Source: Escherichia coli
GTDB lineage: Bacteria; Pseudomonadota; Gammaproteobacteria; Enterobacterales; Enterobacteriaceae
Length of the DNA stretch: 64,000 nucleotides
Assembly: GCF_001677475.2 (NCBI RefSeq)
Contig: NZ_CP015229.1
Direction: 5' to 3' (one strand)
Position 1 is the stretch's first letter, and every line of letters starts with the position of its first letter. Below are positions 1-27,746 of the stretch, piece after piece. The notes under the pieces are model-generated. The model was not told where the DNA came from, searched no databases, and saw only the letters and a program-made list of their open reading frames with translations. The translations under genes and the position numbers were made by a program.

Positions 1-703
1 TCCCGGCCTCGATCTCATCATCCTGCTGTTGGCAGATCATGAAATGAACGCGTTCAGGATCGATATCGCCCAGCGTTTCACGGAATGCGGCAACCTGGTT
101 GTTTTCACAGCCCAGACCAATCACCAGCACTGCGCCTGCGTTCGGGTGGCGCACCATGTTTTGCAGCATGGTGCGGGTATTAATATGATCGTCGCCCAGC
201 TGTGAGCAGCCGTAGGTGTGGCTGAAGAGGAACACGCCATCGGTACCTTCGGCGTTGTTGGTCTCTTTCAGGAAACGATTTTGGATCTGCCGCGCGATGC
301 CGTTGACACAGCCCACGGTTGGCAGGATCCACAGCTCATTACGCACCCCGACATCGCCGTTAGCGCGACGATAGATCTGCACTTCACGATCTGCCGCTTG
401 CGCAGGCAGATCCTGAAAATCAGGTTGATAGCGATACTGATCCAGATCGCTCAGATTCGTGCGCGTATTGTGGGCGTGAACGTGTTCCCCCGCCGCAATA
501 TCCGCCAATGCATAACCAATCGGCAGGCCATATTTGATGACGTTGGCCCCTTTTGCGATATCCGTTAACGCAAATTTATGTCCACGAGCAACATCCTGGC
601 GCAGCGTAACAGTCTGGTTATCGACACTGACTTCTGTGCCTTCCGCCAAATCTGCTAAAGCGACCGCGACGTTATCCAGCGCATGGATCTTGATGTATTG
701 CAT
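1..703 (-). CDS. uxaA: Altronate dehydratase UxaA, N-terminal 234 codons (gene runs off window start)
   Basis: Reverse translation from 703 reads MQYIKIHALDNVAVALADLAE..., matching UxaA; lies immediately downstream of uxaC as in the uxaCA operon. Confidence 0.9.
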   Translation of the reverse strand, partial: MQYIKIHALDNVAVALADLAEGTEVSVDNQTVTLRQDVARGHKFALTDIAKGANVIKYGLPIGYALADIAAGEHVHAHNTRTNLSDLDQYRYQPDFQDLPAQAADREVQIYRRANGDVGVRNELWILPTVGCVNGIARQIQNRFLKETNNAEGTDGVFLFSHTYGCSQLGDDHINTRTMLQNMVRHPNAGAVLVIGLGCENNQVAAFRETLGDIDPERVHFMICQQQDDEIEAG

Positions 704-717
704 ATCAACCCCAGACC

Positions 718-2232
<1,515 letters not shown>

Positions 2233-2340
2233 TCAATAAACGTAGTTAAAAAAATTACTCTCAAAGTGGTAAATCTCGCTGCAGGCCGCGCCAGTACTGG
2301 CCTCGCTGTCGTCAGGTAATGTCCCTACAAATATTCGCAC

Positions 2341-2362
2341 ATTTGTGATGGCTCTCACCTTT
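2341..2362. promoter_or_regulatory. Candidate CRP site (TGTGA-N6-TCACC) in the divergent uxaCA/exuT control region
   Basis: tgtgatggctctcacc matches the CRP half-site consensus with correct 6 bp spacing; hexuronate genes are known to be catabolite controlled. Confidence 0.5.
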
Positions 2363-2363
2363 T

Positions 2364-2383
2364 AAAGTTGTATGACAAGTTAT
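2364..2383. promoter_or_regulatory. Candidate ExuR/UxuR-type operator (imperfect inverted repeat aaagttgtatgacaagttat)
   Basis: Near-palindromic; a highly similar motif recurs at 9343..9362 just upstream of exuR. Confidence 0.45.
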
Positions 2384-2612
2384 CTTTCTGCCGTCGCAAA
2401 TCATAAGTCGACGGAATGCAAATTGCCGATTCATTCATTTGTTAGATGAATCGGGTTAACCGGTACGGAAGCCGAATTAGCACGAAACTTTCATGGCAAC
2501 GTTCGGGGCGTGCCGGTTTTTTTTCGGTTACCCGGTCGTAACTAACATCTTCAGCCTCTGGCGGGATGATTGCCGCGCTTCCTGCGGATATAACAAAACG
2601 ATGAGGTTTTAC

Positions 2613-3911
2613 ATGCGTAAAATTAAAGGGTTACGTTGGTATATGATCGCACTGGTGACGCTCGGCACCGTGCTTGGTTACCTGACGCGTAACACTGTGG
2701 CGGCAGCTGCGCCAACTCTGATGGAAGAGTTAAACATCTCCACCCAACAGTATTCCTATATCATCGCAGCGTATTCTGCTGCTTATACGGTCATGCAACC
2801 GGTAGCGGGCTATGTACTGGATGTGCTGGGTACGAAAATCGGTTATGCAATGTTTGCTGTACTGTGGGCCGTGTTCTGTGGTGCAACCGCGCTGGCAGGT
2901 AGCTGGGGCGGCTTGGCTGTTGCTCGTGGTGCGGTCGGTGCCGCGGAAGCAGCGATGATCCCGGCGGGTCTGAAAGCCAGCTCCGAATGGTTCCCGGCGA
3001 AAGAGCGTTCCATCGCAGTAGGCTACTTTAACGTAGGTTCTTCGATTGGTGCGATGATTGCGCCGCCGCTGGTGGTATGGGCAATCGTGATGCACAGCTG
3101 GCAGATGGCATTTATCATCTCCGGTGCATTGAGCTTTATCTGGGCGATGGCATGGCTGATTTTCTATAAACATCCGCGCGACCAGAAGCATCTGACCGAT
3201 GAAGAACGCGACTATATTATTAATGGTCAGGAAGCCCAGCACCAGGTGAGTACGGCGAAGAAAATGTCCGTTGGTCAGATCCTGCGTAACCGTCAGTTCT
3301 GGGGTATCGCGCTGCCGCGTTTCCTGGCTGAACCGGCGTGGGGGACTTTCAACGCGTGGATCCCGCTGTTCATGTTTAAAGTTTACGGCTTTAACCTGAA
3401 AGAGATCGCGATGTTCGCCTGGATGCCGATGCTGTTTGCTGACCTCGGTTGTATCCTCGGTGGTTACCTGCCGCCGCTGTTCCAGCGTTGGTTTGGCGTA
3501 AACCTGATCGTCTCTCGTAAGATGGTCGTAACGCTGGGTGCGGTGCTGATGATTGGCCCAGGTATGATCGGTCTGTTCACCAACCCATATGTAGCGATTA
3601 TGCTGCTGTGTATTGGTGGTTTTGCTCACCAGGCACTGTCTGGCGCACTGATTACGCTCTCTTCTGACGTGTTCGGTCGTAATGAAGTCGCAACGGCAAA
3701 CGGTCTGACCGGGATGTCCGCATGGCTGGCAAGTACGCTGTTTGCGCTGGTTGTTGGTGCTCTGGCTGACACCATCGGCTTCAGCCCGCTGTTCGCAGTG
3801 CTGGCAGTGTTCGACCTGTTAGGCGCGCTGGTTATCTGGACGGTATTGCAGAACAAACCGGCGATTGAGGTGGCGCAGGAAACACATAACGATCCCGCCC
3901 CGCAACATTAA
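2613..3911 (+). CDS. exuT: Hexuronate transporter (MFS), 432 aa
   Basis: ORF 2493..3911; start at MRKIKGLRWYMIALVTLG (ATG 2613); multi-span membrane protein matching ExuT. Confidence 0.92.
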   Translation: MRKIKGLRWYMIALVTLGTVLGYLTRNTVAAAAPTLMEELNISTQQYSYIIAAYSAAYTVMQPVAGYVLDVLGTKIGYAMFAVLWAVFCGATALAGSWGGLAVARGAVGAAEAAMIPAGLKASSEWFPAKERSIAVGYFNVGSSIGAMIAPPLVVWAIVMHSWQMAFIISGALSFIWAMAWLIFYKHPRDQKHLTDEERDYIINGQEAQHQVSTAKKMSVGQILRNRQFWGIALPRFLAEPAWGTFNAWIPLFMFKVYGFNLKEIAMFAWMPMLFADLGCILGGYLPPLFQRWFGVNLIVSRKMVVTLGAVLMIGPGMIGLFTNPYVAIMLLCIGGFAHQALSGALITLSSDVFGRNEVATANGLTGMSAWLASTLFALVVGALADTIGFSPLFAVLAVFDLLGALVIWTVLQNKPAIEVAQETHNDPAPQH

Positions 3912-3934
3912 CGCTTAGCGTGAGTTTTAATGTC

Positions 3935-3965
3935 GAAGCCGCCTGTTCAGGCGGCTTCGTTGTTT
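3935..3965 (+). terminator. Intrinsic terminator after exuT (GC hairpin gaagccgcc/ggcggcttc then T-rich tract)
   Basis: Perfect 9 bp stem with 6 nt loop followed by gttgttt. Confidence 0.7.
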
Positions 3966-3988
3966 ATGCGTTTGCCCGGCCTATAGGG

Positions 3989-5074
3989 TTAATTGATGGT
4001 TGGTAGAGATGGAGTAAAAATTACCGATAGTTTCCCCATGTAATACCCGGCCTGTTTATCCATCACGCTAAATTTATCGACCGCCAGGGTTAATGGCGTC
4101 GGCACACACATGACAGCGTAACGAATTCCTGGCAGCACAACCGGACGAACGCGCTTCAGGTTGATGCTGTTCCAGACCATATTTTCATTGTTGCGAACAT
4201 CAATTTGCCCGCCCGTTTCCGGGTTATACATTTTTACCCGATAATCAATGCGTTCTGAGGCATCTGTCGATGTTCCTCCCTGACGATAGATCGAGAAGTC
4301 GCCATCTCTTCGTCCGGCAGCCGGGCGACCTTCATCTTTAAGCTGGATTTCATAACTGATAGCGTTGCCGTTAAAACCATCGTACAGGCACATATCCAGC
4401 GTGGTCAGATCCTGAGCATAGTTACTGCCATTGACGCTCCCCGTCGGGTGTAGATCCAACTGTACCCGTGGCGTGGCGTGGGCAAACTCAGGAAAGAAGA
4501 TATCGATATGGTTGGGATCGAGCGTATTAAGCGTGATATCCGCAACATAATCTGTTCCAGGAGTGGAAAAACGTAATTTAGCAGAACCTTCCCAGACGCC
4601 GCCGATTGGTAATTTTTTCATTTCGGCTTGTTCAAGATACAGGGTTACCGGCTTTGCAGTGGCAAGATGTTGAACATTATCATTACCCTTGCAGTAATAG
4701 CCATTACCATCAGTCAAATTCAGTTGCTTGCTCCATCCCTTGCATGGCCCTTCATCCCAGACTTCTGCGTTCATATAGCCCGTCAGTTTCACAGGCCAAC
4801 GCATACCGCTGCGCTTTTCAGTCAAGTAAATCTGCACTTTTGTCGTGTTTCCAGATGATGTGCAGGTCTGCTGCATATCAGAGAAGTTGCACTGATACCA
4901 TGCCCATGTAGTGTTGTAGTTGTACGCCGGTGGGGCTTCTTTGTTCCAGAAATAGTAATTCGCCCTCCCCGTCGCCAAATCGTAAGTTACATCCGCCGTA
5001 ACATTTTGGGCTGCCTGAACACCCGCAACCGAGCCCCAAAAGCAAAATAGTATGGCAATCAATCGCTTTCTCAT
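3989..5074 (-). CDS. Fimbrial tip/minor adhesin, class 5 (CfaE/CooD-like), 361 aa with signal peptide
   Basis: Size and motifs (KLPIGGVW, DLHPTG, DMCLYDGF, GYYMGKLSVIFTPS) resemble CfaE/CooD as recalled; last gene of a chaperone-pilin-usher-adhesin operon. Confidence 0.8.
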   Translation of the reverse strand: MRKRLIAILFCFWGSVAGVQAAQNVTADVTYDLATGRANYYFWNKEAPPAYNYNTTWAWYQCNFSDMQQTCTSSGNTTKVQIYLTEKRSGMRWPVKLTGYMNAEVWDEGPCKGWSKQLNLTDGNGYYCKGNDNVQHLATAKPVTLYLEQAEMKKLPIGGVWEGSAKLRFSTPGTDYVADITLNTLDPNHIDIFFPEFAHATPRVQLDLHPTGSVNGSNYAQDLTTLDMCLYDGFNGNAISYEIQLKDEGRPAAGRRDGDFSIYRQGGTSTDASERIDYRVKMYNPETGGQIDVRNNENMVWNSINLKRVRPVVLPGIRYAVMCVPTPLTLAVDKFSVMDKQAGYYMGKLSVIFTPSLPTIN

Positions 5075-7755
5075 GGTGCAACCTCCCTTTGCGCCGTTTG
5101 CACACTTTCGCGTAATTTAGGCTGTTTTAACTGCGCCTGAACCTGAATCGACTCTGGCAATTGCGAATAACTCACGACGCTACAAGTCACATCGCCGCTG
5201 TAACGAATGCTGGCGCGTTTCTTCACAACAGTCAGCGGACATTTAAGGAATTCGTGTCCGGAAAGCAGATACAGTTCTTTATCATTGCCGCTAATTTCCA
5301 GCGTAAATCCGCCATCTTCAGCCACCAATAACATGGTGCTGTTCAGACCAATCAGCGGGAATTTCTCTACTGATGCTGGCAATAACAAGCGACCAATATA
5401 GTTGTAGTTAAAGCTGGCAGTGACTTCGCGATAACGTAACTTACCGGGCAGCAACATTAATTCCCGGTTTCCCGCGCCATTGATAATATTGGTTGTTCCC
5501 TGCTGATTGCCCTGGTTGCTGTCCCTGACGTCAACAAAGCCCGACTGGAATCCAGCATAGGGGAACAACACACTGTCACTTTGACCAAGTTGCAGAGTTC
5601 TGCTGCCCGCAACCCGAGCTTCGAATTGCAGATCCTGGCTCTCTTCATCCTGTTCAGTAAATCCTTTTACATCGACTAATACAGCGCCGAGCAGATCATC
5701 TGTTCCACTGGCTCCCAGATTAATTCCGTAACGACTCACCGCCAGTGTGGAACTGTAAGTCCCTGTAAAGGCAGAAAGATGATCATGGTTCTTGCGATCG
5801 TAACTGTCTGATACGGTTCCGTTGAGATTACCGTACTGCCCTTCCCAACGACCATTAACCGCACTGTTTATGGTATCGGTGTTCAGGCCACCGACGGTTA
5901 CGCCAAGTTCTTTATGGCTGAATGAATCATTATAAAAGGTATGCGATAACTGCCATGAAGTTTGGTCGCCATCCTGATCGCTATAGCGATAGTCAGTCGA
6001 AACATTGGTTGAGTGACTGTTATTATTGCTGTCCATCGTTGGTGTATCAGATAACGAAAACGATAAGTACAATCCGTTGTCGTCGTTATCTCCGCCGTTG
6101 TCGTTACGATGGAAAACCCCGACAGAAGTGCTCAAAATCCAGTCACGCATTATAAAAGCGCGAGACGCGCTAAGCTGTACGGTTTCAGAAATACTTTGCG
6201 CAGAAGTCTGGCGAAGATAGTTATTTTCAAAACTCTGCTGTTTGTCCCAGCGTAAGCTGTCGTCGGTGTTATTTTGCGTGCGGGTATAACCCAGCATCAG
6301 GTTCCAGCCGATAAGATTCTGTGAAATCGTAGCGGATATGCTTTCATAACAGCTTAAGGCGTTGTAGCTATCTCTGCTGTCGGTTGTACAAGCATCTCCG
6401 TCGGAGTTGGTACGATAAAAGCCCAGCGTCGGCCATCCCGAATTACTCCAGTTAACCTGCTGCATATCACCTTTGCCGCCATCGTCATTGCGGAACAGGC
6501 TGGCACCTATGGCAAGATTCCCCGCCCCGCCTAAATCCGCCGTCCAGTTATTACCTAACTCGAAAGCATTCACATCATCGGCATTCGCCAGCCCTGCGTA
6601 GAGCTCATATTGTGGATGTAACGGCAGGCGAAAACCCAGTTGATAAGCTGAACTTTCGTCATCGGCAGCCTGGGAGGTGGTTTTACCGGCCTGTAAGAAC
6701 CACTGCGCATTTCCGTCCGTCAGCCCCCCTGTTTTGGTAAAAGGGACAAGTTCAGTGCGGGTGAGTTGGTTGTTCTCATAAACTTTTAACGCCACGCTGT
6801 AGCTGCCTGGCGGAAAGGAACCAGTATCAATAAATTGCGAACCACTATTGAGATAAAACGATCCCAGAAGTTGTTCATTACGATAAGCGTCAACACGAGA
6901 ATTGCGCGAAAGCAGGACCATTACTGGCGTTCCTTGCTGACTCTGCGCCTGGTTTAAATAACTGAGTGTTGACCCGATACGCATTCCATCGATTGCACCG
7001 AGTGGCAGAAAGTTAAAAGTAAAATTCCCGCCTTGTGCATTAAATAGCGTGCGGTTGTCCATTCGCCCCGCCTGCACATAATAACGACGTAAAAAATCAT
7101 AACGATAATAGAGATCGCTGACATCAGCATTATTATCGCTGACATCTTCTGCCTCATAGCCATTGAAATTCCAGTGCCCGCCAATATAACTATTCTCTGT
7201 GACACCCAGCGCACCATTGCCCTGAATGGAGAACGATTGGTAATCATCCTGCACCAGCACGTTAATATCCTGCTGATGAATAAATGCATTAATCGCGTTT
7301 CTGTCTGGATTTAAATATAGCGATTTTGAATTTAACGAGGAACTCCATTGGGGATTCAGAAAGAGGGTGGCGGAACTCTCTTCATCATTAAAAATAATGT
7401 CAACAGAATCGGTATTGAGAAAGCCACATCCTGAATCGGTCTGCGCAAAACCACAAGCCAGTTCACCATGACGCACCAGTGGTTGTGCCAGTCTCGCTTT
7501 TACGGCTTGAGTGATTTTTTGGTCTTTGGTATCCAGCTCCAGCTTATTATATAAACTTGCTGAATCCAGAAATGTTACGGCATCAAGATTAACCATTGCA
7601 TAATATTTACCGAGACTTTTCCCGGCATAATAGACTTCAATATACTCCTGCTGTCCCTGTGCAATAACCTCAAACCCAGCGGGAATTTTAGTTAATGCTG
7701 CCTTTGCCGGGCTGAGACTCGCCAGGATCAAAAGAGCCAGTAATTTTTTATCCAT
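5071..7755 (-). CDS. Fimbrial outer-membrane usher (CooC/CfaC-like), about 894 aa
   Basis: ORF 5071..7809 (912 aa); start preferred at MDKKLLALLILASLSPAKA (signal peptide, ATG at 7755, RBS agggt); large beta-barrel-type protein between pilin and adhesin genes. Confidence 0.85.
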   Translation of the reverse strand: MDKKLLALLILASLSPAKAALTKIPAGFEVIAQGQQEYIEVYYAGKSLGKYYAMVNLDAVTFLDSASLYNKLELDTKDQKITQAVKARLAQPLVRHGELACGFAQTDSGCGFLNTDSVDIIFNDEESSATLFLNPQWSSSLNSKSLYLNPDRNAINAFIHQQDINVLVQDDYQSFSIQGNGALGVTENSYIGGHWNFNGYEAEDVSDNNADVSDLYYRYDFLRRYYVQAGRMDNRTLFNAQGGNFTFNFLPLGAIDGMRIGSTLSYLNQAQSQQGTPVMVLLSRNSRVDAYRNEQLLGSFYLNSGSQFIDTGSFPPGSYSVALKVYENNQLTRTELVPFTKTGGLTDGNAQWFLQAGKTTSQAADDESSAYQLGFRLPLHPQYELYAGLANADDVNAFELGNNWTADLGGAGNLAIGASLFRNDDGGKGDMQQVNWSNSGWPTLGFYRTNSDGDACTTDSRDSYNALSCYESISATISQNLIGWNLMLGYTRTQNNTDDSLRWDKQQSFENNYLRQTSAQSISETVQLSASRAFIMRDWILSTSVGVFHRNDNGGDNDDNGLYLSFSLSDTPTMDSNNNSHSTNVSTDYRYSDQDGDQTSWQLSHTFYNDSFSHKELGVTVGGLNTDTINSAVNGRWEGQYGNLNGTVSDSYDRKNHDHLSAFTGTYSSTLAVSRYGINLGASGTDDLLGAVLVDVKGFTEQDEESQDLQFEARVAGSRTLQLGQSDSVLFPYAGFQSGFVDVRDSNQGNQQGTTNIINGAGNRELMLLPGKLRYREVTASFNYNYIGRLLLPASVEKFPLIGLNSTMLLVAEDGGFTLEISGNDKELYLLSGHEFLKCPLTVVKKRASIRYSGDVTCSVVSYSQLPESIQVQAQLKQPKLRESVQTAQREVAP

Positions 7756-7780
7756 GGCAACCCTGTAATCCATAACAACG

Positions 7781-7820
7781 ACTAAAATAGTTAAAATAAG
7801 GGAGGACAAGCCCCCCCTTT
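7781..7820 (-). terminator. Intra-operon hairpin (GGGGGG/CCUCCC stem, U-rich tail) between the pilin and usher genes; possible attenuator
   Basis: Minus-strand transcript ggggggg-cttgtc-ctccctt followed by auuuuaacuauuuu; position matches pilin/usher attenuators seen in other chaperone-usher operons. Confidence 0.4.
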
Positions 7821-7846
7821 ATTACGTATTAATTCTGTTATCCGGA

Positions 7847-8347
7847 TTAGATATCCTGGGACAGATAGATGCTTACCACACCACGGTAAATACCGGTTTC
7901 CAGTACACCTTTGGTGGTCTGAGCAAACATCAGGTTTTTAGCCAAAGAACCGTTGGTTAAAGCATCGGAAGCAAAAATTTTGGTTGCTTCGAAAGTGGTA
8001 GCGGCATCAGACTTGATTTCAGTACCACCCCAGGTCACAGTCAGCGGAACAGTTTTGCTGCCGTCCAGGTTATGAACCAGTTGCGCAGGGGAAACCAACT
8101 GCATTTTAATGTCTTTAGTAACATCGTTAGACCAAATTTTAGTCATCAACTGATAAGATTGCAGACCCTGACCCGGCAGATATTGCATTTCAACTGCTTT
8201 CGGCAGTGCGCTGTTATCGGTTTGCGTCATATCCAGGGCGGCATCAACGTTAGCTGTTACAGTAATATCTTTTTGTACTGCTAACGCGGAGCCTGCTACA
8301 GAGAATAACGCTGCTACCAGAAGAGATTTTGCAAATGCCTTTTTCAT
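7847..8347 (-). CDS. Major fimbrial subunit, class 5 (CooA/CfaB-like pilin), 166 aa with signal peptide
   Basis: ITVTANVDAALDMTQTDNSALP and C-terminal YRGVVSIYLSQ resemble CooA ISVTASVDPTVDLLQSDGSALP ... YQGLVSIIL as recalled. Confidence 0.85.
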   Translation of the reverse strand: MKKAFAKSLLVAALFSVAGSALAVQKDITVTANVDAALDMTQTDNSALPKAVEMQYLPGQGLQSYQLMTKIWSNDVTKDIKMQLVSPAQLVHNLDGSKTVPLTVTWGGTEIKSDAATTFEATKIFASDALTNGSLAKNLMFAQTTKGVLETGIYRGVVSIYLSQDI

Positions 8348-8376
8348 TACTATTCCTTCGTTTATGACAATGATAA

Positions 8377-9093
8377 TTAATGGATCGCCAGCTCAAACTC
8401 GCCATTATCCTTAGTGATCCAGTTATTATATTTGACAACGATCTTGTCGTAGCCAGATATGCTTTCAAGATTTATTTCCTGACCAGGGAAGATATTTTTA
8501 TTTACGGTCTGCATCTTACAATTATCTTTGCTATTATTTTTGCAATAAGCGATCGTTAAAAGTTTTAAACGTTGATTCCCTGCATTAAATAATTTTTTGG
8601 CAGGATTTACTTCTAACTTAGCAATAGGTTGTTGGGGTGGAACACTAACAACAATCCCCCAAATCAAGTTAACTGTTAACTGCATAGAGAGATCTTTTTT
8701 ATCTGTGGCAACGTCATCAATACTGGGAACTGCTTCAAATTTAACGCGGTAATTTTTCTCTTTTTGCTCTGGTTCCATTGCGACAAAGCGCACGGTTTTG
8801 CTGCTACCGGCTGGTAAGGCGAATTTGGGTGGCATAACGACCAGATGATTTGCATCACCGGATTTAATCTCAACTTCATTTTCCTGAGGCGTCGATGGAT
8901 TATCTATACGGAATACTGTCGCCTTGATATACTGAACTTCATTACTTTTAGATATTACACGAACGTTGCCTTCACCCTGACTATTAATAGAAACAGCCAT
9001 AGGATAAACAGTCATATTTGACTGTGCAAAAAAAGGAGCGAACACGAATAAAAGCGGCGTAAGCCGTGATAAGAGTTTAATTTTCGCCACCAT
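8377..9093 (-). CDS. Periplasmic fimbrial chaperone, class 5 (CooB/CfaA-like), 238 aa
   Basis: IYPMAVS, KSNEVQYIKATV and YRVKFEAV resemble CooB IYPISKD, KSKEIQYIKIYT and YRVYFEAV as recalled; first gene of the operon. Confidence 0.85.
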   Translation of the reverse strand: MVAKIKLLSRLTPLLFVFAPFFAQSNMTVYPMAVSINSQGEGNVRVISKSNEVQYIKATVFRIDNPSTPQENEVEIKSGDANHLVVMPPKFALPAGSSKTVRFVAMEPEQKEKNYRVKFEAVPSIDDVATDKKDLSMQLTVNLIWGIVVSVPPQQPIAKLEVNPAKKLFNAGNQRLKLLTIAYCKNNSKDNCKMQTVNKNIFPGQEINLESISGYDKIVVKYNNWITKDNGEFELAIH

Positions 9094-9342
9094 ATAGAAT
9101 TGATCTTACAAAATTGTTTCAAAAAAGTTAGTGCATTAGAAATGTAGATTTATTGTAAGTCAATATAAAAAATCATTTTTAGTTAATATTAATTTAAAAA
9201 GCGAAAAATTAAGTTACTGAAACATAGTAATTTTCACAATAGCGACGCTTAATTTTTAGGAATTTATAAATATTCACAATGTTAATTAAATACATTATTT
9301 CAATCACCATATTTATATATGAACAATGGCATACCCATAAAT
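9094..9342 (-). promoter_or_regulatory. Strongly AT-rich leader/promoter region of the fimbrial operon
   Basis: About 250 bp of very low GC with A/T tracts immediately upstream of the chaperone start; exact promoter elements not assigned. Confidence 0.4.
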
Positions 9343-9362
9343 AAAGTGGTATGATAACTTTG
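9343..9362. promoter_or_regulatory. Candidate ExuR operator upstream of exuR (aaagtggtatgataactttg)
   Basis: Matches the 2364..2383 motif at about 16 of 20 positions; sits 27 bp upstream of the exuR start. Confidence 0.45.
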
Positions 9363-9388
9363 TCCGCATTCCATTCCGGGAGACGCAT

Positions 9389-10165
9389 ATGGAAATCTCT
9401 GAACCACGCCGTTTGTACCAACAACTTGCTGCTGACCTGAAAGAGCGCATTGAGCAGGGCGTCTATCTGGTGGGTGATAAACTGCCCGCCGAACGTTTTA
9501 TTGCCGATGAAAAAAACGTCAGCCGAACGGTAGTTCGTGAAGCCATCATCATGCTGGAAGTTGAAGGCTATGTGGAGGTGCGTAAAGGTTCAGGTATTCA
9601 CGTGGTTTCCAACCAGCCGCGCCATCAGCAGGCGGCTGACGATAATATGGAATTTGCCAATTACGGCCCGTTTGAACTGTTACAGGCTCGCCAGCTTATC
9701 GAGAGCAATATTGCCGAGTTTGCCGCAACCCAGGTGACCAAGCAGGACATCATGAAATTGATGGCCATCCAGGAGCAGGCTCGCGGCGAACAATGCTTCC
9801 GCGATTCCGAGTGGGATTTGCAGTTCCACATTCAGGTAGCCCTGGCGACGCAGAACTCCGCCCTGGCGGCTATCGTTGAAAAAATGTGGACCCAACGTAG
9901 CCATAACCCGTACTGGAAAAAACTACACGAACACATTGATGCCCGTACTGTCGATAACTGGTGCGATGACCACGATCAGATCCTCAAGGCGTTAATTCGC
10001 AAAGATCCTCATGCTGCTAAGCTGGCAATGTGGCAGCATCTGGAAAACACCAAAATCATGTTATTTAACGAAACCAGCGACGATTTCGAGTTCAATGCCG
10101 ACCGCTATCTGTTCGCAGAAAACCCGGTAGTGCATCTCGATACGGCCACCAGCGGCAGCAAATGA
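9389..10165 (+). CDS. exuR: Hexuronate regulon repressor ExuR (GntR/FadR family), 258 aa
   Basis: [37 protein letters not shown]...; length matches ExuR. Confidence 0.93.
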
Positions 10166-10177
10166 AATTTCCATCCG

Positions 10178-10205
10178 ACAGGCGCTGCAATGCGCCTGTT
10201 TGCTT
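10178..10205 (+). terminator. Intrinsic terminator after exuR
   Basis: acaggcgctgcaatgcgcctgt hairpin followed by ttgctt. Confidence 0.6.
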
Positions 10206-10509
10206 CGTCGGTAAGCGAAAAGTATAAAGTGTCAGCCTGTGTAAATCCTCTCGCCACCCTCCCCTGTAATCAGCAAAATCAGACTCCACGGACATGTAAT
10301 TTTGATAACGAACAACGTTGACCTTTGTTACAATTAGATTCAATTTGAATTTATGCTTTTGAATGCTTTCTTATCTCACGATTTAACAGGGAATAGTTCA
10401 GGCTGTGTTGATGTATCAAACCCGCAAAACATACCAAAACAGCAATAACATTGCGGTAGTGCATCTTTTAAAACCAGCGTGGCGTTAACCGATTCACCAG
10501 GAATAATGA

Positions 10510-11172
10510 ATGGAACTTTTGACCCAATTGCTGCAAGCCCTGTGGGCGCAGGATTTTGAAACCCTGGCCAATCCGTCGATGATTGGCATGTTGTATTTTG
10601 TCTTGTTTGTAATTTTGTTCCTTGAAAACGGCTTGCTTCCGGCGGCCTTTTTACCGGGTGACAGTTTACTGGTGTTGGTCGGCGTATTGATTGCGAAAGG
10701 CGCGATGGGCTACCCTCAAACGATTCTGCTGCTGACTGTTGCCGCCAGCCTCGGTTGCTGGGTCAGCTATATTCAGGGGCGATGGCTGGGCAATACCCGC
10801 ACCGTACAAAACTGGCTATCTCATTTACCCGCGCATTATCATCAACGCGCACACCATCTTTTTCATAAACACGGTTTATCGGCGCTGTTAATTGGTCGCT
10901 TTATTGCATTTGTCAGAACACTGCTGCCGACGATTGCCGGATTATCAGGGCTGAATAACGCGCGCTTTCAGTTCTTCAACTGGATGAGCGGTCTGCTGTG
11001 GGTATTGATCCTGACAACTCTGGGTTACATGCTCGGCAAAACGCCGGTATTTTTAAAGTACGAGGACCAGCTGATGTCATGCCTGATGCTGCTCCCGGTG
11101 GTGCTGCTGGTGTTTGGCCTGGCAGGTTCTCTGGTCGTGTTATGGAAAAAGAAATATGGAAATCGGGGGTAA
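10510..11172 (+). CDS. yqjA: DedA-family inner membrane protein YqjA, 220 aa
   Basis: [33 protein letters not shown]...; DedA-like hydrophobic profile. Confidence 0.9.
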
Positions 11173-11175
11173 GGG

Positions 11176-11559
11176 ATGCAAAAACCTCGCATGTCGCTTC
11201 GTCAGCTAGCCTGGTCCGGCGCTGTTTTACTTCTGGTCGGCACACTGTTGCTGGCCTGGTCCGCGGTTCGCCAGCAAGAGTCTACGCTGGCGATTCGTGC
11301 CGTTCATCAAGGCACAACGATGCCAGACGGTTTTTCAATCTGGCATCACCTTGACGCTCACGGCATTCCTTTCAAAAGTATCACCCCCAAAAATGACACT
11401 CTGTTAATTACCTTTGACTCCAGCGACCAGAGTGCCGCCGCAAAAGCGGTCCTCGACAGAACATTGCCCCATGGCTACATCATTGCACAGCAGGACAATA
11501 ATAGTCAGGCTATGCAGTGGCTGACCCGGTTGCGGGATAACTCTCATCGCTTCGGATAA
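11176..11559 (+). CDS. mzrA: Modulator of EnvZ/OmpR MzrA, 127 aa
   Basis: [34 protein letters not shown]... Confidence 0.9.
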
Positions 11560-11705
11560 CTTCCTGTTATCCGAAACATATCACTGACTTTGGTGATTTC
11601 ACCGTAACTGTCTATGATTAATGAGGCGGTGGTTAACACTACCGCTTCGTTGTCTGGACAATCGTTCCTTTGTAATAGGTCCGAATCACAATGGAAGGTT
11701 CAAGA

Positions 11706-12074
11706 ATGAAATACCGCATCGCTTTAGCTGTTTCTCTTTTTGCTCTTAGTGCCGGTAGTTATGCCACTACCCTGTGTCAGGAAAAGGAGCAAAATATCCT
11801 TAAGGAGATCAGCTATGCCGAAAAACACCAAAACCAGAATCGTATTGACGGTCTGAATAAAGCCCTGAGTGAAGTCCGGGCCAACTGTTCAGATAGCCAG
11901 CTGCGTGCCGATCATCAGAAGAAAATCGCAAAGCAGAAAGATGAGGTGGCGGAACGCCAGCAAGATTTAGCCGAGGCGAAGCAAAAAGGCGATGCCGATA
12001 AGATTGCCAAACGCGAACGGAAACTGGCAGAAGTGCAGGAAGAGCTGAAAAAGCTGGAAGCGCGCGACTACTAA
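11706..12074 (+). CDS. yqjC: Periplasmic DUF1090 protein YqjC, 122 aa
   Basis: ORF 11691..12074; start at MKYRIALAVSLFALSAGSYA (signal peptide); charged coiled-coil-like C-terminus. Confidence 0.88.
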   Translation: MKYRIALAVSLFALSAGSYATTLCQEKEQNILKEISYAEKHQNQNRIDGLNKALSEVRANCSDSQLRADHQKKIAKQKDEVAERQQDLAEAKQKGDADKIAKRERKLAEVQEELKKLEARDY

Positions 12075-12111
12075 CTCACAATAGTCACTACTTACTCACC
12101 TGGAGAAAACT

Positions 12112-12417
12112 ATGTCGAAAGAACACACTACGGAACATCTGCGTGCTGAGTTGAAATCCCTTTCCGATACGCTGGAAGAGGTGCTTAGCTCATCTGGCGA
12201 GAAGTCGAAAGAAGAGTTGAGTAAGATTCGTAGCAAAGCGGAGCAGGCACTGAAACAGAGCCGTTATCGCCTGGGTGAAACCGGTGATGCCATTGCTAAA
12301 CAAACCCGTGTCGCGGCGGCGCGTGCCGATGAGTATGTGCGTGAAAACCCGTGGACGGGCGTGGGCATTGGCGCTGCAATCGGTGTAGTGCTCGGCGTTC
12401 TGCTGTCGCGTCGTTAA
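12112..12417 (+). CDS. yqjD: Ribosome-associated tail-anchored membrane protein YqjD (ElaB family), 101 aa
   Basis: MSKEHTTEHLRAELKSLSDTLEEVL... with C-terminal transmembrane segment. Confidence 0.9.
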   Translation: MSKEHTTEHLRAELKSLSDTLEEVLSSSGEKSKEELSKIRSKAEQALKQSRYRLGETGDAIAKQTRVAAARADEYVRENPWTGVGIGAAIGVVLGVLLSRR

Positions 12418-12419
12418 TT

Positions 12420-12824
12420 ATGGCGGACACTCATCACGCGCAAGGGCCCGGTAAAAGCGTTCTGGGCATCGGGCAGCGAATTGTTTCCATCATGGTTGAA
12501 ATGGTGGAAACACGTCTGCGGCTGGCGGTGGTGGAGCTGGAAGAGGAAAAAGCTAATCTCTTTCAACTTTTACTGATGCTGGGCCTGACGATGCTTTTCG
12601 CTGCATTTGGTCTTATGAGCCTGATGGTGCTAATTATTTGGGCGGTTGATCCGCAATATCGCCTGAATGCGATGATTGCCACCACCGTGGTGTTGCTGCT
12701 ACTGGCACTGATTGGCGGTATCTGGACGTTACGTAAATCGCGTAAATCCACCTTGCTGCGCCATACACGCCATGAGCTGGCAAACGATCGGCAGCTGCTC
12801 GAGGAGGAGTCCCGTGAGCAGTAA
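12420..12824 (+). CDS. yqjE: Inner membrane protein YqjE, 134 aa
   Basis: Start at MADTHHAQGPGKSVLG (ATG 12420) within ORF 12351..12824; two hydrophobic segments. Confidence 0.85.
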   Translation: MADTHHAQGPGKSVLGIGQRIVSIMVEMVETRLRLAVVELEEEKANLFQLLLMLGLTMLFAAFGLMSLMVLIIWAVDPQYRLNAMIATTVVLLLLALIGGIWTLRKSRKSTLLRHTRHELANDRQLLEEESREQ

Positions 12825-13113
12825 AGTCGAACGTGAACGACGTAAGGCGCAACTGCTTAGCCAGATCCAGCAACAACGGCTGGATCTTTCCGCCAGTCGT
12901 CGTGAATGGCTGGAGGCAACAGGCGCTTACGATCGTCGCTGGAATATGCTGCTAAGTCTGCGCTCCTGGGCGCTGGTTGGCAGTAGCGTGATGGCGATCT
13001 GGACGATTCGCCATCCTAATATGCTGGTCCGCTGGGCCAGACGCGGTTTTGGCGTATGGAGCGCCTGGCGTCTGGTTAAAACGACCCTCAAGCAGCAACA
13101 ACTTCGCGGTTAA
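12814..13113 (+). CDS. yqjK: Small protein YqjK, 99 aa (GTG start)
   Basis: VSSKVERERRKAQLLSQIQQQRLDLS...; overlaps the yqjE 3' end by 11 nt. Confidence 0.8.
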   Translation: MSSKVERERRKAQLLSQIQQQRLDLSASRREWLEATGAYDRRWNMLLSLRSWALVGSSVMAIWTIRHPNMLVRWARRGFGVWSAWRLVKTTLKQQQLRG

Positions 13114-13298
13114 CTTCCCTCTGGCCGGAGCCATTCCGGCCTTATCCCTCAAATTTTTTGAAGATTTTTGACAGTTTTCCTTGCTAACAATCATGTTTCA
13201 CCACGTTTATGATTCTCTCCATCGACAGCAACGACGCTAATACCGCGCCCTTGCACAAAAAAACAATCAGCAGCCTGAGTGGCGCAGTGGAGAGTATG

Positions 13299-13691
13299 AT
13301 GAAAAAATTAGAAGATGTTGGTGTACTGGTAGCGCGCATTTTAATGCCGATTCTGTTTATTACCGCAGGCTGGGGAAAAATTACTGGCTACGCGGGTACC
13401 CAACAATATATGGAAGCGATGGGCGTCCCGGGTTTTATGCTGCCGCTGGTGATTCTGCTTGAGTTTGGTGGTGGTCTGGCAATCCTGTTCGGTTTCCTGA
13501 CTCGCACCACAGCCCTGTTTACTGCGGGCTTTACGCTGCTGACGGCATTTTTATTTCACAGCAACTTTGCTGAAGGCGTCAACTCGCTGATGTTCATGAA
13601 AAACCTGACAATTTCTGGCGGATTCCTGCTGCTGGCAATTACCGGTCCGGGCGCGTATAGCATCGACCGCCTGCTGAATAAAAAGTGGTAA
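13299..13691 (+). CDS. yqjF: DoxX-family inner membrane protein YqjF, about 130 aa
   Basis: ORF 13209..13691; start chosen at MKKLEDVGVLVARILMPILFITAGW after a GGAG RBS; exact start uncertain. Confidence 0.8.
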   Translation: MKKLEDVGVLVARILMPILFITAGWGKITGYAGTQQYMEAMGVPGFMLPLVILLEFGGGLAILFGFLTRTTALFTAGFTLLTAFLFHSNFAEGVNSLMFMKNLTISGGFLLLAITGPGAYSIDRLLNKKW

Positions 13692-13717
13692 GCACGCGCT
13701 ATACTTAACGATAAAAA

Positions 13718-13742
13718 ACGAGGAGGAAGCTCCTCGTTTTTG
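13718..13742 (+). terminator. Intrinsic terminator after yqjF
   Basis: acgaggag-gaag-ctcctcgt hairpin followed by ttttt. Confidence 0.7.
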
Positions 13743-13760
13743 CTATTGGAGGAGAGAAAA

Positions 13761-14747
13761 ATGGGTCAACTGATTGACGGCGTCTGGCATGACACCTGGT
13801 ACGATACCAAATCTACCGGCGGTAAATTTCAACGTTCAGCTTCCGCATTTCGTAACTGGCTCACTGCCGATGGCGCTCCTGGCCCCACTGGCACAGGCGG
13901 TTTTATCGCTGAGAAAGATCGTTATCATCTCTATGTTTCACTCGCCTGCCCGTGGGCACACCGCACGCTGATCATGCGTAAACTCAAAGGACTGGAACCG
14001 TTTATTTCCGTTTCCGTAGTGAACCCGCTGATGCTGGAAAACGGCTGGACCTTTGATGACAGTTTTCCGGGAGCAACCGGAGACACGCTCTATCAACATG
14101 AATTTTTGTATCAGCTTTATCTCCACGCCGATCCACACTACAGCGGACGAGTTACTGTTCCCGTGCTGTGGGACAAAAAGAACCACACCATCGTCAGCAA
14201 CGAATCAGCAGAAATCATCCGCATGTTCAATACCGCGTTTGATGCGCTGGGCGCGAAAGCGGGTGATTACTACCCTCCAGCCCTGCAAACAAAAATTGAC
14301 GAACTTAACGGCTGGATTTATGACGCCGTTAACAACGGCGTGTATAAAGCTGGTTTTGCCACCAGCCAGGAAGCTTACGACGAGGCGGTGGCGAAAGTGT
14401 TTGAATCGCTGGCGCGACTGGAGCAGATTTTAGGCCAGCATCGTTACCTGACCGGCAATCAGCTAACCGAAGCCGATATTCGCCTGTGGACTACGCTGGT
14501 CCGTTTTGATCCAGTGTATGTGACCCACTTCAAGTGTGATAAGCACCGCATCAGCGATTACCTGAATCTGTATGGCTTCCTGCGCGATATCTACCAGATG
14601 CCGGGAATTGCCGAAACAGTCAATTTCGATCATATCCGTAATCATTACTTCCGCAGCCATAAGACCATCAACCCTACGGGGATTATTTCAATTGGTCCGT
14701 GGCAGGATCTCGATGAACCGCATGGACGAGATGTTCGCTTCGGTTAA
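13761..14747 (+). CDS. yqjG: Glutathionyl-hydroquinone reductase YqjG (Xi-class GST), 328 aa
   Basis: ORF 13740..14747; start at MGQLIDGVWHDTWYDTKSTGGKFQR; CPWAHR active-site motif present. Confidence 0.92.
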   Translation: MGQLIDGVWHDTWYDTKSTGGKFQRSASAFRNWLTADGAPGPTGTGGFIAEKDRYHLYVSLACPWAHRTLIMRKLKGLEPFISVSVVNPLMLENGWTFDDSFPGATGDTLYQHEFLYQLYLHADPHYSGRVTVPVLWDKKNHTIVSNESAEIIRMFNTAFDALGAKAGDYYPPALQTKIDELNGWIYDAVNNGVYKAGFATSQEAYDEAVAKVFESLARLEQILGQHRYLTGNQLTEADIRLWTTLVRFDPVYVTHFKCDKHRISDYLNLYGFLRDIYQMPGIAETVNFDHIRNHYFRSHKTINPTGIISIGPWQDLDEPHGRDVRFG

Positions 14748-14750
14748 AAA

Positions 14751-14778
14751 AGGCACCTTACGAGGTGCCTCTGATTAT
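14751..14778 (+). terminator. Intrinsic terminator after yqjG
   Basis: Perfect 8 bp stem aggcacct/aggtgcct with tacg loop, then T-rich tract. Confidence 0.55.
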
Positions 14779-14794
14779 TAGCTAAGTGCATGTT

Positions 14795-14889
14795 GGATGC
14801 GGCGTGAACGCCTTATTCAACCCACAAAACTTTTTATATTCAATATGTTGCAAGGACAGCGTAAGCCAGATAAGCGTAGTGCATCTGGC
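14795..14889. repeat. REP-like palindromic units
   Basis: gatgcggcgtgaacgccttattcaa and gccagataagcgtagtgcatctggc resemble E. coli REP consensus. Confidence 0.55.
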
Positions 14890-15030
14890 AATTTTGCACT
14901 TGTCATCAGTTTTAGCGCGCCTTCAAAGCACCTTATTAATTCATTGAACGAATATTTACTGCCATTTCATTCACGTCTATTCTTAATTTGCTGCTTTAAA
15001 AACAAGTGATTGAGCAAAATTGAGGCGAAA

Positions 15031-15396
15031 ATGGACTGGTATCTGAAAGTACTAAAAAATTATGTCGGTTTCCGGGGTCGTGCGCGGCGCAAAGAGTACT
15101 GGATGTTTATTCTGGTCAACATCATCTTCACGTTCGTGCTGGGGCTACTGGATAAAATGTTAGGCTGGCAACGCGCAGGTGGCGAAGGCATCCTGACGAC
15201 AATCTACGGTATTCTGGTGTTTTTACCGTGGTGGGCGGTTCAGTTCCGCCGCCTGCACGACACCGACCGCTCGGCGTGGTGGGCACTGCTATTCTTAATC
15301 CCGTTTATCGGCTGGCTTATTATCATCGTCTTTAACTGCCAGGCGGGTACGCCAGGCGAAAACCGCTTTGGACCAGATCCAAAACTGGAACCTTAA
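15031..15396 (+). CDS. yhaH: DUF805 inner membrane protein YhaH, 121 aa
   Basis: MDWYLKVLKNYVGFRGRARRKEYWMF... Confidence 0.88.
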   Translation: MDWYLKVLKNYVGFRGRARRKEYWMFILVNIIFTFVLGLLDKMLGWQRAGGEGILTTIYGILVFLPWWAVQFRRLHDTDRSAWWALLFLIPFIGWLIIIVFNCQAGTPGENRFGPDPKLEP

Positions 15397-15409
15397 AACA
15401 AATCTGCTC

Positions 15410-15437
15410 GCCGGATGTCTGACTCATCCGGCTTTTA
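15410..15437 (+). terminator. Intrinsic terminator after yhaH
   Basis: gccggatg...catccggc hairpin followed by tttt. Confidence 0.75.
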
Positions 15438-15637
15438 TCATTATGTTGATGAATGAATAATTTACTAATGTTTATTTAAAATATTTCAATGTCGTTATAT
15501 AAATTACCTATAAAAAATAACCATGTATTTATCTTAAATATCAAAACCTTTATAACATCCGAAAAAGAAAGATACGAATAGCATTTACACAATACCCGGA
15601 ATAGACTTTCGTCACTTTTAATTAAAGGGATGTTTTT

Positions 15638-15994
15638 ATGCAGTGGTATTTATCCGTATTAAAAAATTATGTTGGTTTCTCTGGTCGCGCACGTCGTAAA
15701 GAGTACTGGATGTTTACTCTGATTAACGCCATCGTCGGCGCTATTATCAATGTCATTCAATTGATTTTAGGTTTAGAGTTTCCATTCCTTTCTCTCATTT
15801 ACCTGGCAGCAACAATCATTCCGATCATTGCTCTGTGCGTTCGTCGTCTGCACGATACTGACCGTTCAGGTGCGTGGGCGCTTCTCTATCTGGTACCGAT
15901 CATTGGCTGGTTAGTTCTGTTTGTATTTGCCTGTTTAGAAGGCAATTCTGGCAGCAATCGTTACGGAAACGATCCGAAGTTTGGTTCAAATTAA
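15638..15994 (+). CDS. yhaI: DUF805 inner membrane protein YhaI, 118 aa (paralog of yhaH)
   Basis: MQWYLSVLKNYVGFSGRARRKEYWMF...; same fold signature as YhaH but in an AT-rich context. Confidence 0.88.
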   Translation: MQWYLSVLKNYVGFSGRARRKEYWMFTLINAIVGAIINVIQLILGLEFPFLSLIYLAATIIPIIALCVRRLHDTDRSGAWALLYLVPIIGWLVLFVFACLEGNSGSNRYGNDPKFGSN

Positions 15995-16004
15995 TCTTAG
16001 AATT

Positions 16005-16027
16005 GGGGCGATATTTCGCCCCTTTTT
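16005..16027. terminator. Bidirectional intrinsic terminator between yhaI and yhaJ
   Basis: ggggcgatatttcgcccc hairpin flanked by A/T runs. Confidence 0.75.
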
Positions 16028-16044
16028 ATTAACAATAACAAATA

Positions 16045-16941
16045 TTATTTTCCGCTAAAAAGTTTGGGAATTTCCCGCAGACACCAGGATTTCGCTTCCC
16101 CCATACTGTCACGACGCCAGGCCATAATAATATCGATCTCGCTGGTCGATTCCGGGCTGACGACACGCAACCGCCCTTCCGCAATATCTTTTTCGACCAT
16201 CGGATACGGCATCGTCGCCACGCCAAGCCCCGCCAGTAATGCCTGACGTTTATCTTCAATCGTGCTCACCGTTAAGCGCGGCTGTTTGTCCAGCAGCTGT
16301 ACGGTCAACACCGGGCGCTCACGCGCGGTATCCGCTACCGCAATTCCACGATATTTCACGCGCGTCACTTCAGATAACGGTTCCGGCTCCTGATGAATCG
16401 GGTGATCAGGCGCGGCAACGTAGACGTTCATTAAGGTATAGAGCTTTCGCGAGTTGATCTCCGACGAGGAACGAAAATGCATATCCGGCGCGATAACGAT
16501 ATCCGCCCGCCCCTGCTCCAGTCGTTCCCACGCCCCCGCCAGCACTTCGGTGATGATTGCCAGTTGGGTATTGGCTTTTGCCGCCAGTTTGTCAATTAAC
16601 GGGAAAAAGGCAGGTGTCGGTACCAGCGCTTCGGTCACAATGGTGAGATGCGTTTCCCAACCGCGTGCGAGAGCTTCCGCATCGGTAGTCAGTTTATCTG
16701 CGGCTTCCAGCAAAACGCGCCCTCGCTCCAGCAACATCCTCCCGACATTGGTGAATTTGGTGCGATGGCCCGAGCGGTCAAACAGCACCACATCCAGCTC
16801 TTCTTCCAGTTTTTGCATGGTGTAGCTAAGTGCTGAAGGCACGCGTCCCAGCTCATCCGCCGCCGCCGCAAAACTGCCCCGGCGATCGATCGCATCCATA
16901 ACCCGTAGTGCTTCCAGCGTTAATGCCCTTTCTTTGGCCAT
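16045..16941 (-). CDS. yhaJ: LysR-family transcriptional regulator YhaJ, 298 aa
   Basis: MAKERALTLEALRVMDAIDRRGSFAAAADELGRVPSALSYTMQKLEEEL (HTH); divergent from yhaK. Confidence 0.9.
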   Translation of the reverse strand: MAKERALTLEALRVMDAIDRRGSFAAAADELGRVPSALSYTMQKLEEELDVVLFDRSGHRTKFTNVGRMLLERGRVLLEAADKLTTDAEALARGWETHLTIVTEALVPTPAFFPLIDKLAAKANTQLAIITEVLAGAWERLEQGRADIVIAPDMHFRSSSEINSRKLYTLMNVYVAAPDHPIHQEPEPLSEVTRVKYRGIAVADTARERPVLTVQLLDKQPRLTVSTIEDKRQALLAGLGVATMPYPMVEKDIAEGRLRVVSPESTSEIDIIMAWRRDSMGEAKSWCLREIPKLFSGK

Positions 16942-17045
16942 TTCGTTCTCATTCAGGAAATTTGAACATACCGGGCAGAATATCTGGCTAACAATGTAGC
17001 GTCCAGCCCCTTACCATAAAAGGAAGTAAAGAGAGGTCAAGAATT

Positions 17046-17747
17046 ATGATTACTACCCGAACTGCCAGGCAGTGTGGACAAGCAGACTACGGATGGTTGC
17101 AGGCCCGGTATACTTTTTCCTTTGGACACTACTTCGACCCGAAATTGTTAGGCTATGCCTCCCTGCGCGTGCTTAACCAGGAAGTGCTGGCCCCAAGTGC
17201 CGCCTTTCAGCCGCGAACCTATCCCAAAGTCGATATTTTAAATGTGATTCTGGATGGAGAAGCTGAGTATCGCGACAGCGAAGGCAATCATGTTCAGGCC
17301 TGCGCTGGTGAGGTGTTGCTGCTCTCTACCCAGCCGGGTGTCAGCTATAGCGAACACAATCTCAGCAAAGACAAACCGTTAACGCGAATGCAGCTTTGGC
17401 TGGATGCCTGCCCGCAGCGAGAGAATCCGCTGATTCGAAAGCTGGCGCTTAATATGGACAAGCAGCAATTAATCGCCTCGCCAGAGGGTGCGATGGGAAG
17501 CCTGCAATTGCGCCAGCAAGTATGGCTGCATCATATTGTGCTCGACAAAGGCGAAAGTGCGAATTTCCAGTTGCATGGACCACGCGCGTATTTGCAATCG
17601 ATTCACGGGAAATTTCATGCACTTACGCATCATGAAGAGAAAGCGGCGCTGACCTGCGGTGATGGGGCGTTTATTCGTGACGAGGCTAACATTACGCTGG
17701 TTGCCGATTCCCCACTGCGCGCTTTGCTGATAGATTTGCCTGTCTAG
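17046..17747 (+). CDS. yhaK: Pirin-like bicupin protein YhaK, 233 aa
   Basis: MITTRTARQCGQADYGWLQARYTFSFGHYFDPKLLGYASLRVLNQ... Confidence 0.9.
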   Translation: MITTRTARQCGQADYGWLQARYTFSFGHYFDPKLLGYASLRVLNQEVLAPSAAFQPRTYPKVDILNVILDGEAEYRDSEGNHVQACAGEVLLLSTQPGVSYSEHNLSKDKPLTRMQLWLDACPQRENPLIRKLALNMDKQQLIASPEGAMGSLQLRQQVWLHHIVLDKGESANFQLHGPRAYLQSIHGKFHALTHHEEKAALTCGDGAFIRDEANITLVADSPLRALLIDLPV

Positions 17748-17769
17748 TTGTTTTTACAGGGAGATGATG

Positions 17770-17934: not shown

Positions 17935-17939
17935 AGACA

Positions 17940-18060
<121 letters not shown>

Positions 18061-18066
18061 TGGCGT

Positions 18067-19377: not shown

Positions 19378-19404
19378 ATTAAAAACCTTAAAATTTCAGG
19401 TAAA

Positions 19405-20986: not shown

Positions 20987-21010
20987 CAAGGATGAAAGCT
21001 GACAGCAATG

Positions 21011-26411: not shown

Positions 26412-27746
<1,335 letters not shown>

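Follow-up and report, generated by a model that had tools for sequence, protein, structure and literature searches.

ExuR-type operators and the eaf fimbrial insertion in the exuT-exuR region of Escherichia coli

We analysed a stretch of 64,000 nucleotides of Escherichia coli DNA (the window; contig NZ_CP015229.1 of RefSeq assembly GCF_001677475.2) in which the hexuronate genes uxaC, exuT and exuR are found together with a fimbrial operon that lies between exuT and exuR. The gene uxaC (encoding glucuronate isomerase; 718..2130, minus strand; Pfam UxaC, E=5e-216; start mapped via the K-12 alignment) and the gene exuT (encoding a hexuronate transporter of the MFS family; 2613..3911, plus strand; Pfam MFS_1; start and stop mapped from the K-12 annotation) are transcribed divergently, and exuR (encoding a GntR/FCD-family repressor; 9389..10165, plus strand; Pfam GntR 1e-22 and FCD 7e-21) is found on the far side of the fimbrial genes. 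The open reading frame (ORF) delimited mechanically for exuT begins at 2493 (472 aa); the start annotated in K-12 corresponds to 2613 (432 aa). Behind exuT a terminator scan identified a hairpin (3934..3959, plus strand; 11 pairs, then TTGTTTAT), and the segment that contains the fimbrial genes (3958..9342, assigned to neither strand; eaf or CS1-like) measures 5385 bp, in the place of which K-12 has 31 bp. The genes exuT, uxaCA and exuR are members of the exu regulon and are induced by glucuronate, and exuR is also induced by deletion of uxuR (PMC10016265).

Two related motifs occur in this region. The left one (aaagttgtatgacaagttat; 2364..2383, assigned to neither strand) is located in the uxaC/exuT divergent intergenic region, proximal to exuT, and has the same letters in K-12; the right one (aaagtggtatgataactttg; 9343-9362) is separated by 26 nt from the exuR ATG at 9389. 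A preliminary description of this DNA had listed the two 20-mers, and we indeed found both at these positions, with the gap of 26 nt. The motifs share 15 of 20 positions, and no other non-self match in the window, whichever strand is read, is as good. By a binomial estimate, chance alone would produce about 0.5 matches of 15/20 in 128 kb, and 14/20 is reached by three more 20-mers; the similarity of the two 20-mers alone is therefore weak evidence. Both can be read against the core T.GT-N(2-3)-AC.A: the left site (TTGT-ATG-ACAA) is perfect and the right site (TGGT-ATG-ATAA) has a T for the conserved C. When read as a 19-bp palindrome, the right site has perfect outer arms (AAAGT/ACTTT), as in the uxaC operator.

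The window was also scanned with a symmetrised position weight matrix (PWM) made from six K-12 sites (two of uxuA, one of uxuR, two of uxaB and one of uxaC), both tested sites being left out; the training sites were chosen with the help of the ExuR/UxuR palindrome consensus, which we take to be AAATTGGTATACCAATTT. Among the 18-mers of the 64 kb, the site at 9343 ranked fourth (13.8-14.0 bits) and the site at 2364 eighth (12.4 bits), and eight sites scored at or above the threshold where 2.0 +/- 1.3 were expected. A uxaC-proximal site at 2184 was also among the top scorers. Other high matches were discounted for their location, namely those at 26841 (in tdcC), at 8121 (in the major-subunit gene) and at 9111 (in the A/T-rich leader); the first of these, AAAGTGGTTAGCCAGATA at 26841-26858 within the tdcC coding sequence, has the top score of the window (16.2 bits).

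For phylogenetic footprinting one genome per species was scanned with ExuR, which yielded 80 loci. When the uxaC/exuT intergenic regions of 74 species were aligned, positions 2364-2383 proved nearly invariant, and the block proximal to uxaC (2182-2201) was 100% invariant. At the position homologous to 9343, the 17-mer AAAGTGGTATAACAAAT was present in all 77 insert-free sequences (76 species loci and K-12), 26-32 nt before the exuR ATG and between flanks that vary. Among 10 divergent insert-bearing haplotypes the longest invariant run was 9343-9360 (18 nt). In K-12 the ExuR/UxuR operators (of uxaCA, exuT, exuR, uxaB, uxuAB and uxuR) are associated with the same genes, at the same positions and with the same GntR/FadR-type T.GT-N-AC.A core. 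A full-text literature search for the operator letter sequences gave no match, the biosensor and proteome papers printing none. Judged by matrix score and conservation, both motifs are genuine and ordinary operators of the ExuR type, in the places from which exuT and exuR are natively controlled.

The uxaC/exuT intergenic region contains further blocks that were (nearly) 100% invariant in the 74 species (2217-2236 and 2342-2347); one invariant block (TTTTCGTGAGTTAGATCAAT) is similar to a CRP site, and close to the exuT operator there is a block that reads TTTGTG. Known RNA elements were not found in an Rfam scan of 1-12000.

The segment between exuT and exuR was absent from 76 species loci (those of E. 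albertii, of Escherichia sp. E1V33 and 74 loci of other genera); in Citrobacter, Klebsiella, Enterobacter, Kluyvera, Kosakonia and others exuT adjoins exuR, and among the species representatives the segment was found in three Escherichia loci only. Since it is missing in the outgroups, the insert-free state is ancestral and the segment is an insertion. Within E. coli it is common: 1902 of the 5426 complete genomes (~35%) have it at the exuT-exuR site, when at least 80% of a 7.5-kb query is required. In the BLAST comparison with K-12 the homology stops at 3957, inside the exuT hairpin, and picks up again at 9343, where the operator begins. K-12 sequence was thus looked for and recovered on both sides of the insert, and the boundaries agree with the preliminary placement of the insertion between the exuT terminator (put there at about 3960) and the exuR operator. 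The 31 bp of K-12 that are replaced by the insert read TTTCATCACTGCGAGTAGAGCTAAACTCGCA. Some insert-bearing E. coli have kept a remnant of them at the left junction (GTAGAGAAAAAACCG, compared with GTAGAGCTAAACTCG in K-12), which puts the insertion point directly upstream of the exuR operator.

No hallmark of a mobile element was found in the segment. No significant direct repeat or target-site duplication was detected at the junctions of five haplotypes (p 0.17-0.93); the 8-mer TTTGTCCG was considered as a target-site duplication, being present at both junctions of strain E69, but was rejected (p 0.17; imperfect or absent elsewhere). Integrase and transposase genes are absent from 3958-9342, where only the four fimbrial genes are found, and in the search for terminal inverted repeats of a mobile element the only notable repeat joined the exuR and uxaC operators, not the ends of the insert. 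The preliminary description had the two operator motifs bracket the insertion. This does not describe the locus well: the left motif is located 1.6 kb from the left junction, with the whole of exuT in between, and both operators are also present in insert-free genomes, so that they are neither a product nor a target of the insertion.

The exuR control region of E. coli exists in two sharply distinct forms, each internally conserved, and in the insert-linked form the family-wide exuR operator is swapped for a uxaC-like one and the native promoter segment is lost. In every insert-bearing sequence examined, AAAGTGGTATGATAACTT is found in place of AAAGTGGTATAACAAAT; this was read letter by letter in eleven insert haplotypes (the window, E69, MOD1-EC7003, SCPM-O-B-8794, 2020CK-00188, SE11 and five more E. 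coli). Compared with the K-12 operators, the exuR site of the window is thus uxaC-like where K-12 has AAAGTGGTATAACAAATA, and the promoter segment upstream of it is replaced. The leader up to the ATG is ~65-70% identical between the insert type and K-12, and the K-12-type leader shows no difference between E. coli and several species of Citrobacter. The window type of leader was counted in 1921 genomes (a BLAST count) and the K-12 type in 3501, which adds up to 5422, i.e. all genomes with the locus; the two leader haplotypes are mutually exclusive and exhaustive across E. coli. K-12 and SE11 diverge by ~1% as far as the stop codon of exuT and the ATG of exuR, the sharp difference being restricted to non-coding DNA, and the ExuR protein of the insert-bearing SE11 is identical to that of K-12. 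A recombination tract extending into the flanking coding sequence was considered and rejected, the divergence of K-12 and SE11 there being ordinary (~1%) and without elevation.

The likeness of the variant to the uxaC operator extends beyond the operator itself. The variant exuR operator with its extension (9343..9369, plus strand; AAAGTGGTATGATAACTTTGTCCGCAT) matches the reverse complement of 2175-2201 (AAATTGGTGTGATAACTTTGTCAGCAT), that is the uxaC-proximal ExuR-type operator with 7 nt downstream (2175..2201, minus strand), at 24 of 27 positions. The two form the right and the left arm, respectively, of the top inverted repeat in 2100-9420 (89% complementary), with ~7.1 kb between the arms; the local alignment score of 39 was reached by none of 5000 shuffles, and in SE11 the same inverted repeat extends over 32 nt. 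In K-12 no similarity between the exuR upstream region and the uxaC operator (p 0.88) and no such repeat were found. By hand counts, the variant and the uxaC operator share 18 of 20 positions, where operators of the regulon usually share 12-15, and the downstream extension TC(A/C)GCAT has 6 of 7 positions common to both sites. This extension is semi-conserved beside the uxaC operator in other genera. The rest of the insert-type leader (TCCATTCCGGGAGACGCAT) is exuR-like (14/19 to K-12 in a hand alignment). The insert-type leader therefore looks chimeric, as if a uxaC-type operator module had been joined to the ribosome-binding region of exuR.

A donor of this module could not be recognised at the level of the genus: the insert-type leader has about equal identity (~65%) to all sampled genera, and the uxaC extension of E. 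coli itself is at least as near to the variant as those found in other genera. Gene conversion between operators, a history involving an unsampled donor and selection after the loss of the native promoter are candidate origins. It was stated earlier that the autoregulatory site of exuR is preserved; an operator is indeed present there, though not in its ancestral form, for the right half and the leader are different and the match is to the uxaC-proximal operator (24/27 in inverted orientation). In the accessible literature we found no mention of an insert-linked swap to a uxaC-type operator.

The exuR promoter of K-12 was assigned as TTTTCA-16-TAAACT, a constitutive promoter, from RpoD genomic SELEX (systematic evolution of ligands by exponential enrichment; Shimada et al. 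2014, PMC3946193), and these elements fall within the 31 bp that are replaced. In the window a replacement exuR promoter is predicted at 9326..9355 on the plus strand, consisting of the insert-derived -35-like hexamer ATGGCA (9326-9331), an 18-nt spacer and the extended -10 TGgTATGAT, with the -10 hexamer TATGAT (9350-9355) inside the operator. TGGCAT at 9327-9332 is invariant in the 10 insert haplotypes.

We consider it likely, with a probability of about 80%, that the resident exu operators are older than an unrelated eaf insertion, with which the exuR promoter segment was replaced and a uxaC-type operator variant was fixed. The operators in the uxaCA/exuT region and upstream of exuR would predate the 5.4-kb block and would have no mechanistic link to it, the operator upstream of exuR serving autoregulation of the repressor. 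The eaf insertion would have arisen within Escherichia and would have taken the place of the 31 bp with the predicted exuR promoter of K-12. ExuR would still bind the uxaC-type variant, given that the uxaC operator shows no variation in 74 species and belongs to an operon repressed by ExuR, and exuR would be transcribed from a rebuilt promoter, with the insert-derived -35-like TGGCA and the extended -10 TGgTATGAT overlapping the operator. Hexuronate control of uxaCA and exuT would be unchanged, and autoregulation of exuR would be kept in kind, possibly at an altered strength. The preliminary expectation that hexuronate regulation is probably intact is in line with this for uxaCA and exuT, the control region of which shows almost no difference from K-12, and for exuR itself only in part, both its operator and its promoter segment having been replaced. 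More tentatively, the displacement of the promoter together with the uxaC-type module of 27-32 nt that fronts exuR in all examined insert lineages may stem from gene conversion between operators, a reading that we hold to be less likely than not.

Several observations weigh against this interpretation. The PWM is small, its training sites were chosen by means of a consensus and the uxaC site is one of them. It scores the variant exuR site 3.6 bits under the ancestral exuR site, and the right core of the variant, taken in the frame of the 18-bp palindrome, is GATA, not ACCA or AACA. The promoter calls are consensus matches, in which the AT-rich region is no richer than shuffles of it, and the -10 of exuR in K-12 might be TAAACT (the assignment by Shimada et al.), TATAAC or TATAGT. 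The drop in score, the departure of the core and the displacement of the native promoter segment would all suit a variant that is not an operator and is conserved for the new -10 TATGAT; with TATGAT in place of TATAAC, the -10 regains its conserved last T and the upstream TG is kept. In that case exuR would be constitutive or differently dosed in ~35% of E. coli. We regard such a loss of the operator as unlikely, given that the sequence which the variant matches at 18 of 20 positions is invariant in 74 species and controls an operon that is classically ExuR-repressed, that the variant ranks fourth in the window and outscores the exuT operator, and that the conserved run covers the full 18-nt palindrome, including the outer arm ACTT, which lies beyond the -10.

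It is quite unlikely, too, that the operator at 9343 is shared by back-to-back promoters and puts the fimbrial operon under the control of ExuR and hexuronates. A -35 is predicted on the minus strand (9323-9318) at ~20 bp from the operator, and the SELEX target of NanR in the nanC/fimB spacer, a site of a GntR-family sugar-acid regulator beside a type 1 fimbrial regulatory gene (PMC5934670), provides a precedent, though by analogy only; set against this are the number of minus-strand promoter calls (2, where 2.5 are expected in DNA of 21% GC), the poor conservation of the DNA between the operator and the chaperone gene, and the low-complexity A/T sequence in which the only other ExuR-like match of the leader (9111) is located. 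That the insertion left the ancestral exuR site and promoter untouched, with exuR regulated as in K-12, is very improbable, for the right half and the leader differ at about one third of the positions from an invariant or conserved sequence and the upstream 31 bp with the TTTTCA-16-TAAACT of Shimada et al. are lost; what agrees with K-12 are the left half AAAGTGGTAT, the distance to the ATG (28 versus 29 nt) and the ExuR protein, identical in SE11. A chance resemblance without function of the right motif, in AT-rich DNA, is effectively refuted: a 15/20 identity is expected ~0.5 times in the window and similar PWM scores occur inside coding regions (e.g. in tdcC at 26841), but the right motif is found exactly at the position of the family-wide invariant element, it comprises the longest invariant run among the divergent haplotypes and its match to the uxaC operator is far beyond chance.

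The insert-linked swap would be a modest but clean and testable case of regulatory rewiring at an insertion junction. If the dosage or the autoregulation of ExuR is altered by it, the hexuronate repressor would be set differently from K-12 and O157 in ~35% of E. coli, a group that includes many non-O157 Shiga toxin-producing E. coli, O104:H4 and commensal B1 strains, and the adjacent fimbriae would possibly be coupled to the sensing of hexuronates. ExuR is said to influence virulence and colonisation in enterohaemorrhagic E. coli and Citrobacter, as Jimenez and colleagues reportedly described in 2020. A difference in exuR expression between strains would matter for galacturonate-responsive phenotypes, and for ExuR-based biosensors that are moved between strains.

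The orientation of the genes bears on another earlier suggestion, namely that the fimbrial leader could interfere with transcription of exuR. Since exuR and the fimbrial operon point away from each other, collision of polymerases at exuR is not expected; effects on exuR would need crowding of the promoters or silencing of the region of 21% GC. It is with exuT that the fimbrial operon is convergent. Past the adhesin stop (3934-3995), the only hairpin on the fimbrial strand is the exuT terminator in reverse, followed by GACATTAAAAC and without a T-run. Fimbrial transcripts may read through in antisense direction into exuT, and this is the geometry in which interference could arise.

The insert consists of a co-oriented four-gene operon on the minus strand, which by its protein homologies is a class-5 (alpha; CS1/CFA-I-type) chaperone-usher operon. 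It encodes a tip adhesin of the CfaE/CblD family (3989..5074, minus strand; Pfam CblD E=1e-100; CfaE chains of PDB E=7e-29), an usher of the TcfC/CooC type (5071..7809 for the ORF as listed, minus strand; Pfam Usher_TcfC 3e-60 and TcfC E-set 2e-19), a major fimbrial subunit of the CS1 type (7847..8347, minus strand; Pfam Fimbrial_CS1 8e-23; CfaB chains of PDB 2e-22 and better) and a fimbrial periplasmic chaperone (8377..9093, minus strand; Pfam PapD_N 9e-8; homologues annotated as chaperone). The usher ORF opens at a TTG that is located 54 nt upstream of the start implied by the length annotated for E. coli homologues (2685 nt), and the true start probably lies downstream of this TTG. The GC content of the insert is 44%, compared with 50-53% in the flanks. 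Between the chaperone gene and the exuR operator there is an AT-rich divergent control region of the fimbrial operon and exuR (9094..9342, assigned to neither strand; 249 bp, 21% GC), of which 9094-9325 showed a pairwise identity of 0.47-1.0 (mean 0.73) in 10 haplotypes.

The fimbrial insert and its location are already known from publications of 2008-2011, and the insert is common in E. coli. In E. coli W the operon eafABCD was described to be located 'between exuT and exuR' and as uncharacterised (Archer et al., PMC3032704), and a 'CS1-like' operon (ECSE_3375-3378 in SE11) was reported for SE11, E24377A, HS, 536 and others and as missing from MG1655, Sakai, CFT073 and UTI89 (Oshima et al. 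2008, PMC2608844). The window has the same four genes at the same locus, in the same order and orientation, as these two operons. It clearly has a gene for a CfaE/CblD-type tip adhesin, whereas Archer et al. reported none for the eaf operon of strain W (PMC3032704). The architecture of chaperone, major subunit, usher and tip adhesin is shared with the class 5 fimbriae CFA/I (CfaABCE) and CS1 (CooBACD) of enterotoxigenic E. coli (ETEC), the adhesin being similar to CfaE (E=7e-29) and the major subunit to CfaB and to CooA of CS1. Unlike these ETEC fimbriae, the operon of the window is chromosomal, is tied to one housekeeping locus and occurs commonly in commensals. ORFs of at least 80 aa were not found between the operon and exuT or exuR, and there is therefore no gene for an activator of the Rns/CfaD type directly beside the operon.

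The allele of the window (3912-9388) is rare: among 1918 complete E. coli genomes with eaf, none exceeds 88.6% nucleotide identity to it; the closest allele is that of strain E69 (CP089930; 95.7%). An origin of the window from a different Escherichia species was considered and rejected, its tdc region being 99.9% and the yqj-yha region 98.6% identical to E. coli. Compared with E69, the chaperone, major subunit and usher are 99-100% identical, and the tip adhesin (3989-5074 in the window, 2605-3687 in the E69 locus) shows an amino-acid identity of only 81%. This divergence of the adhesin alone looks like allele replacement or diversifying selection limited to the adhesin.

In some E. coli the fimbrial operon is broken by copies of the insertion sequences IS1 or IS2 (for instance in CUVM53 and ML775), which indicates that the operon is decaying in some lineages. 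In E. coli HH45 (NZ_CP116411.1; 924-3000 of the locus) ~2 kb of C/A-rich, low-complexity DNA is found between exuT and exuR, without annotated fimbrial genes and stopping exactly at AAAGTGG of the variant operator; this stretch might be a degraded insert, or else an artefact of the assembly. Further downstream in the window, the BLAST match to related loci is interrupted between ~15391 and 16045, and the part from 10200 to 22000 has a median of 22 matching places per E. coli genome and therefore contains a dispersed repeat.

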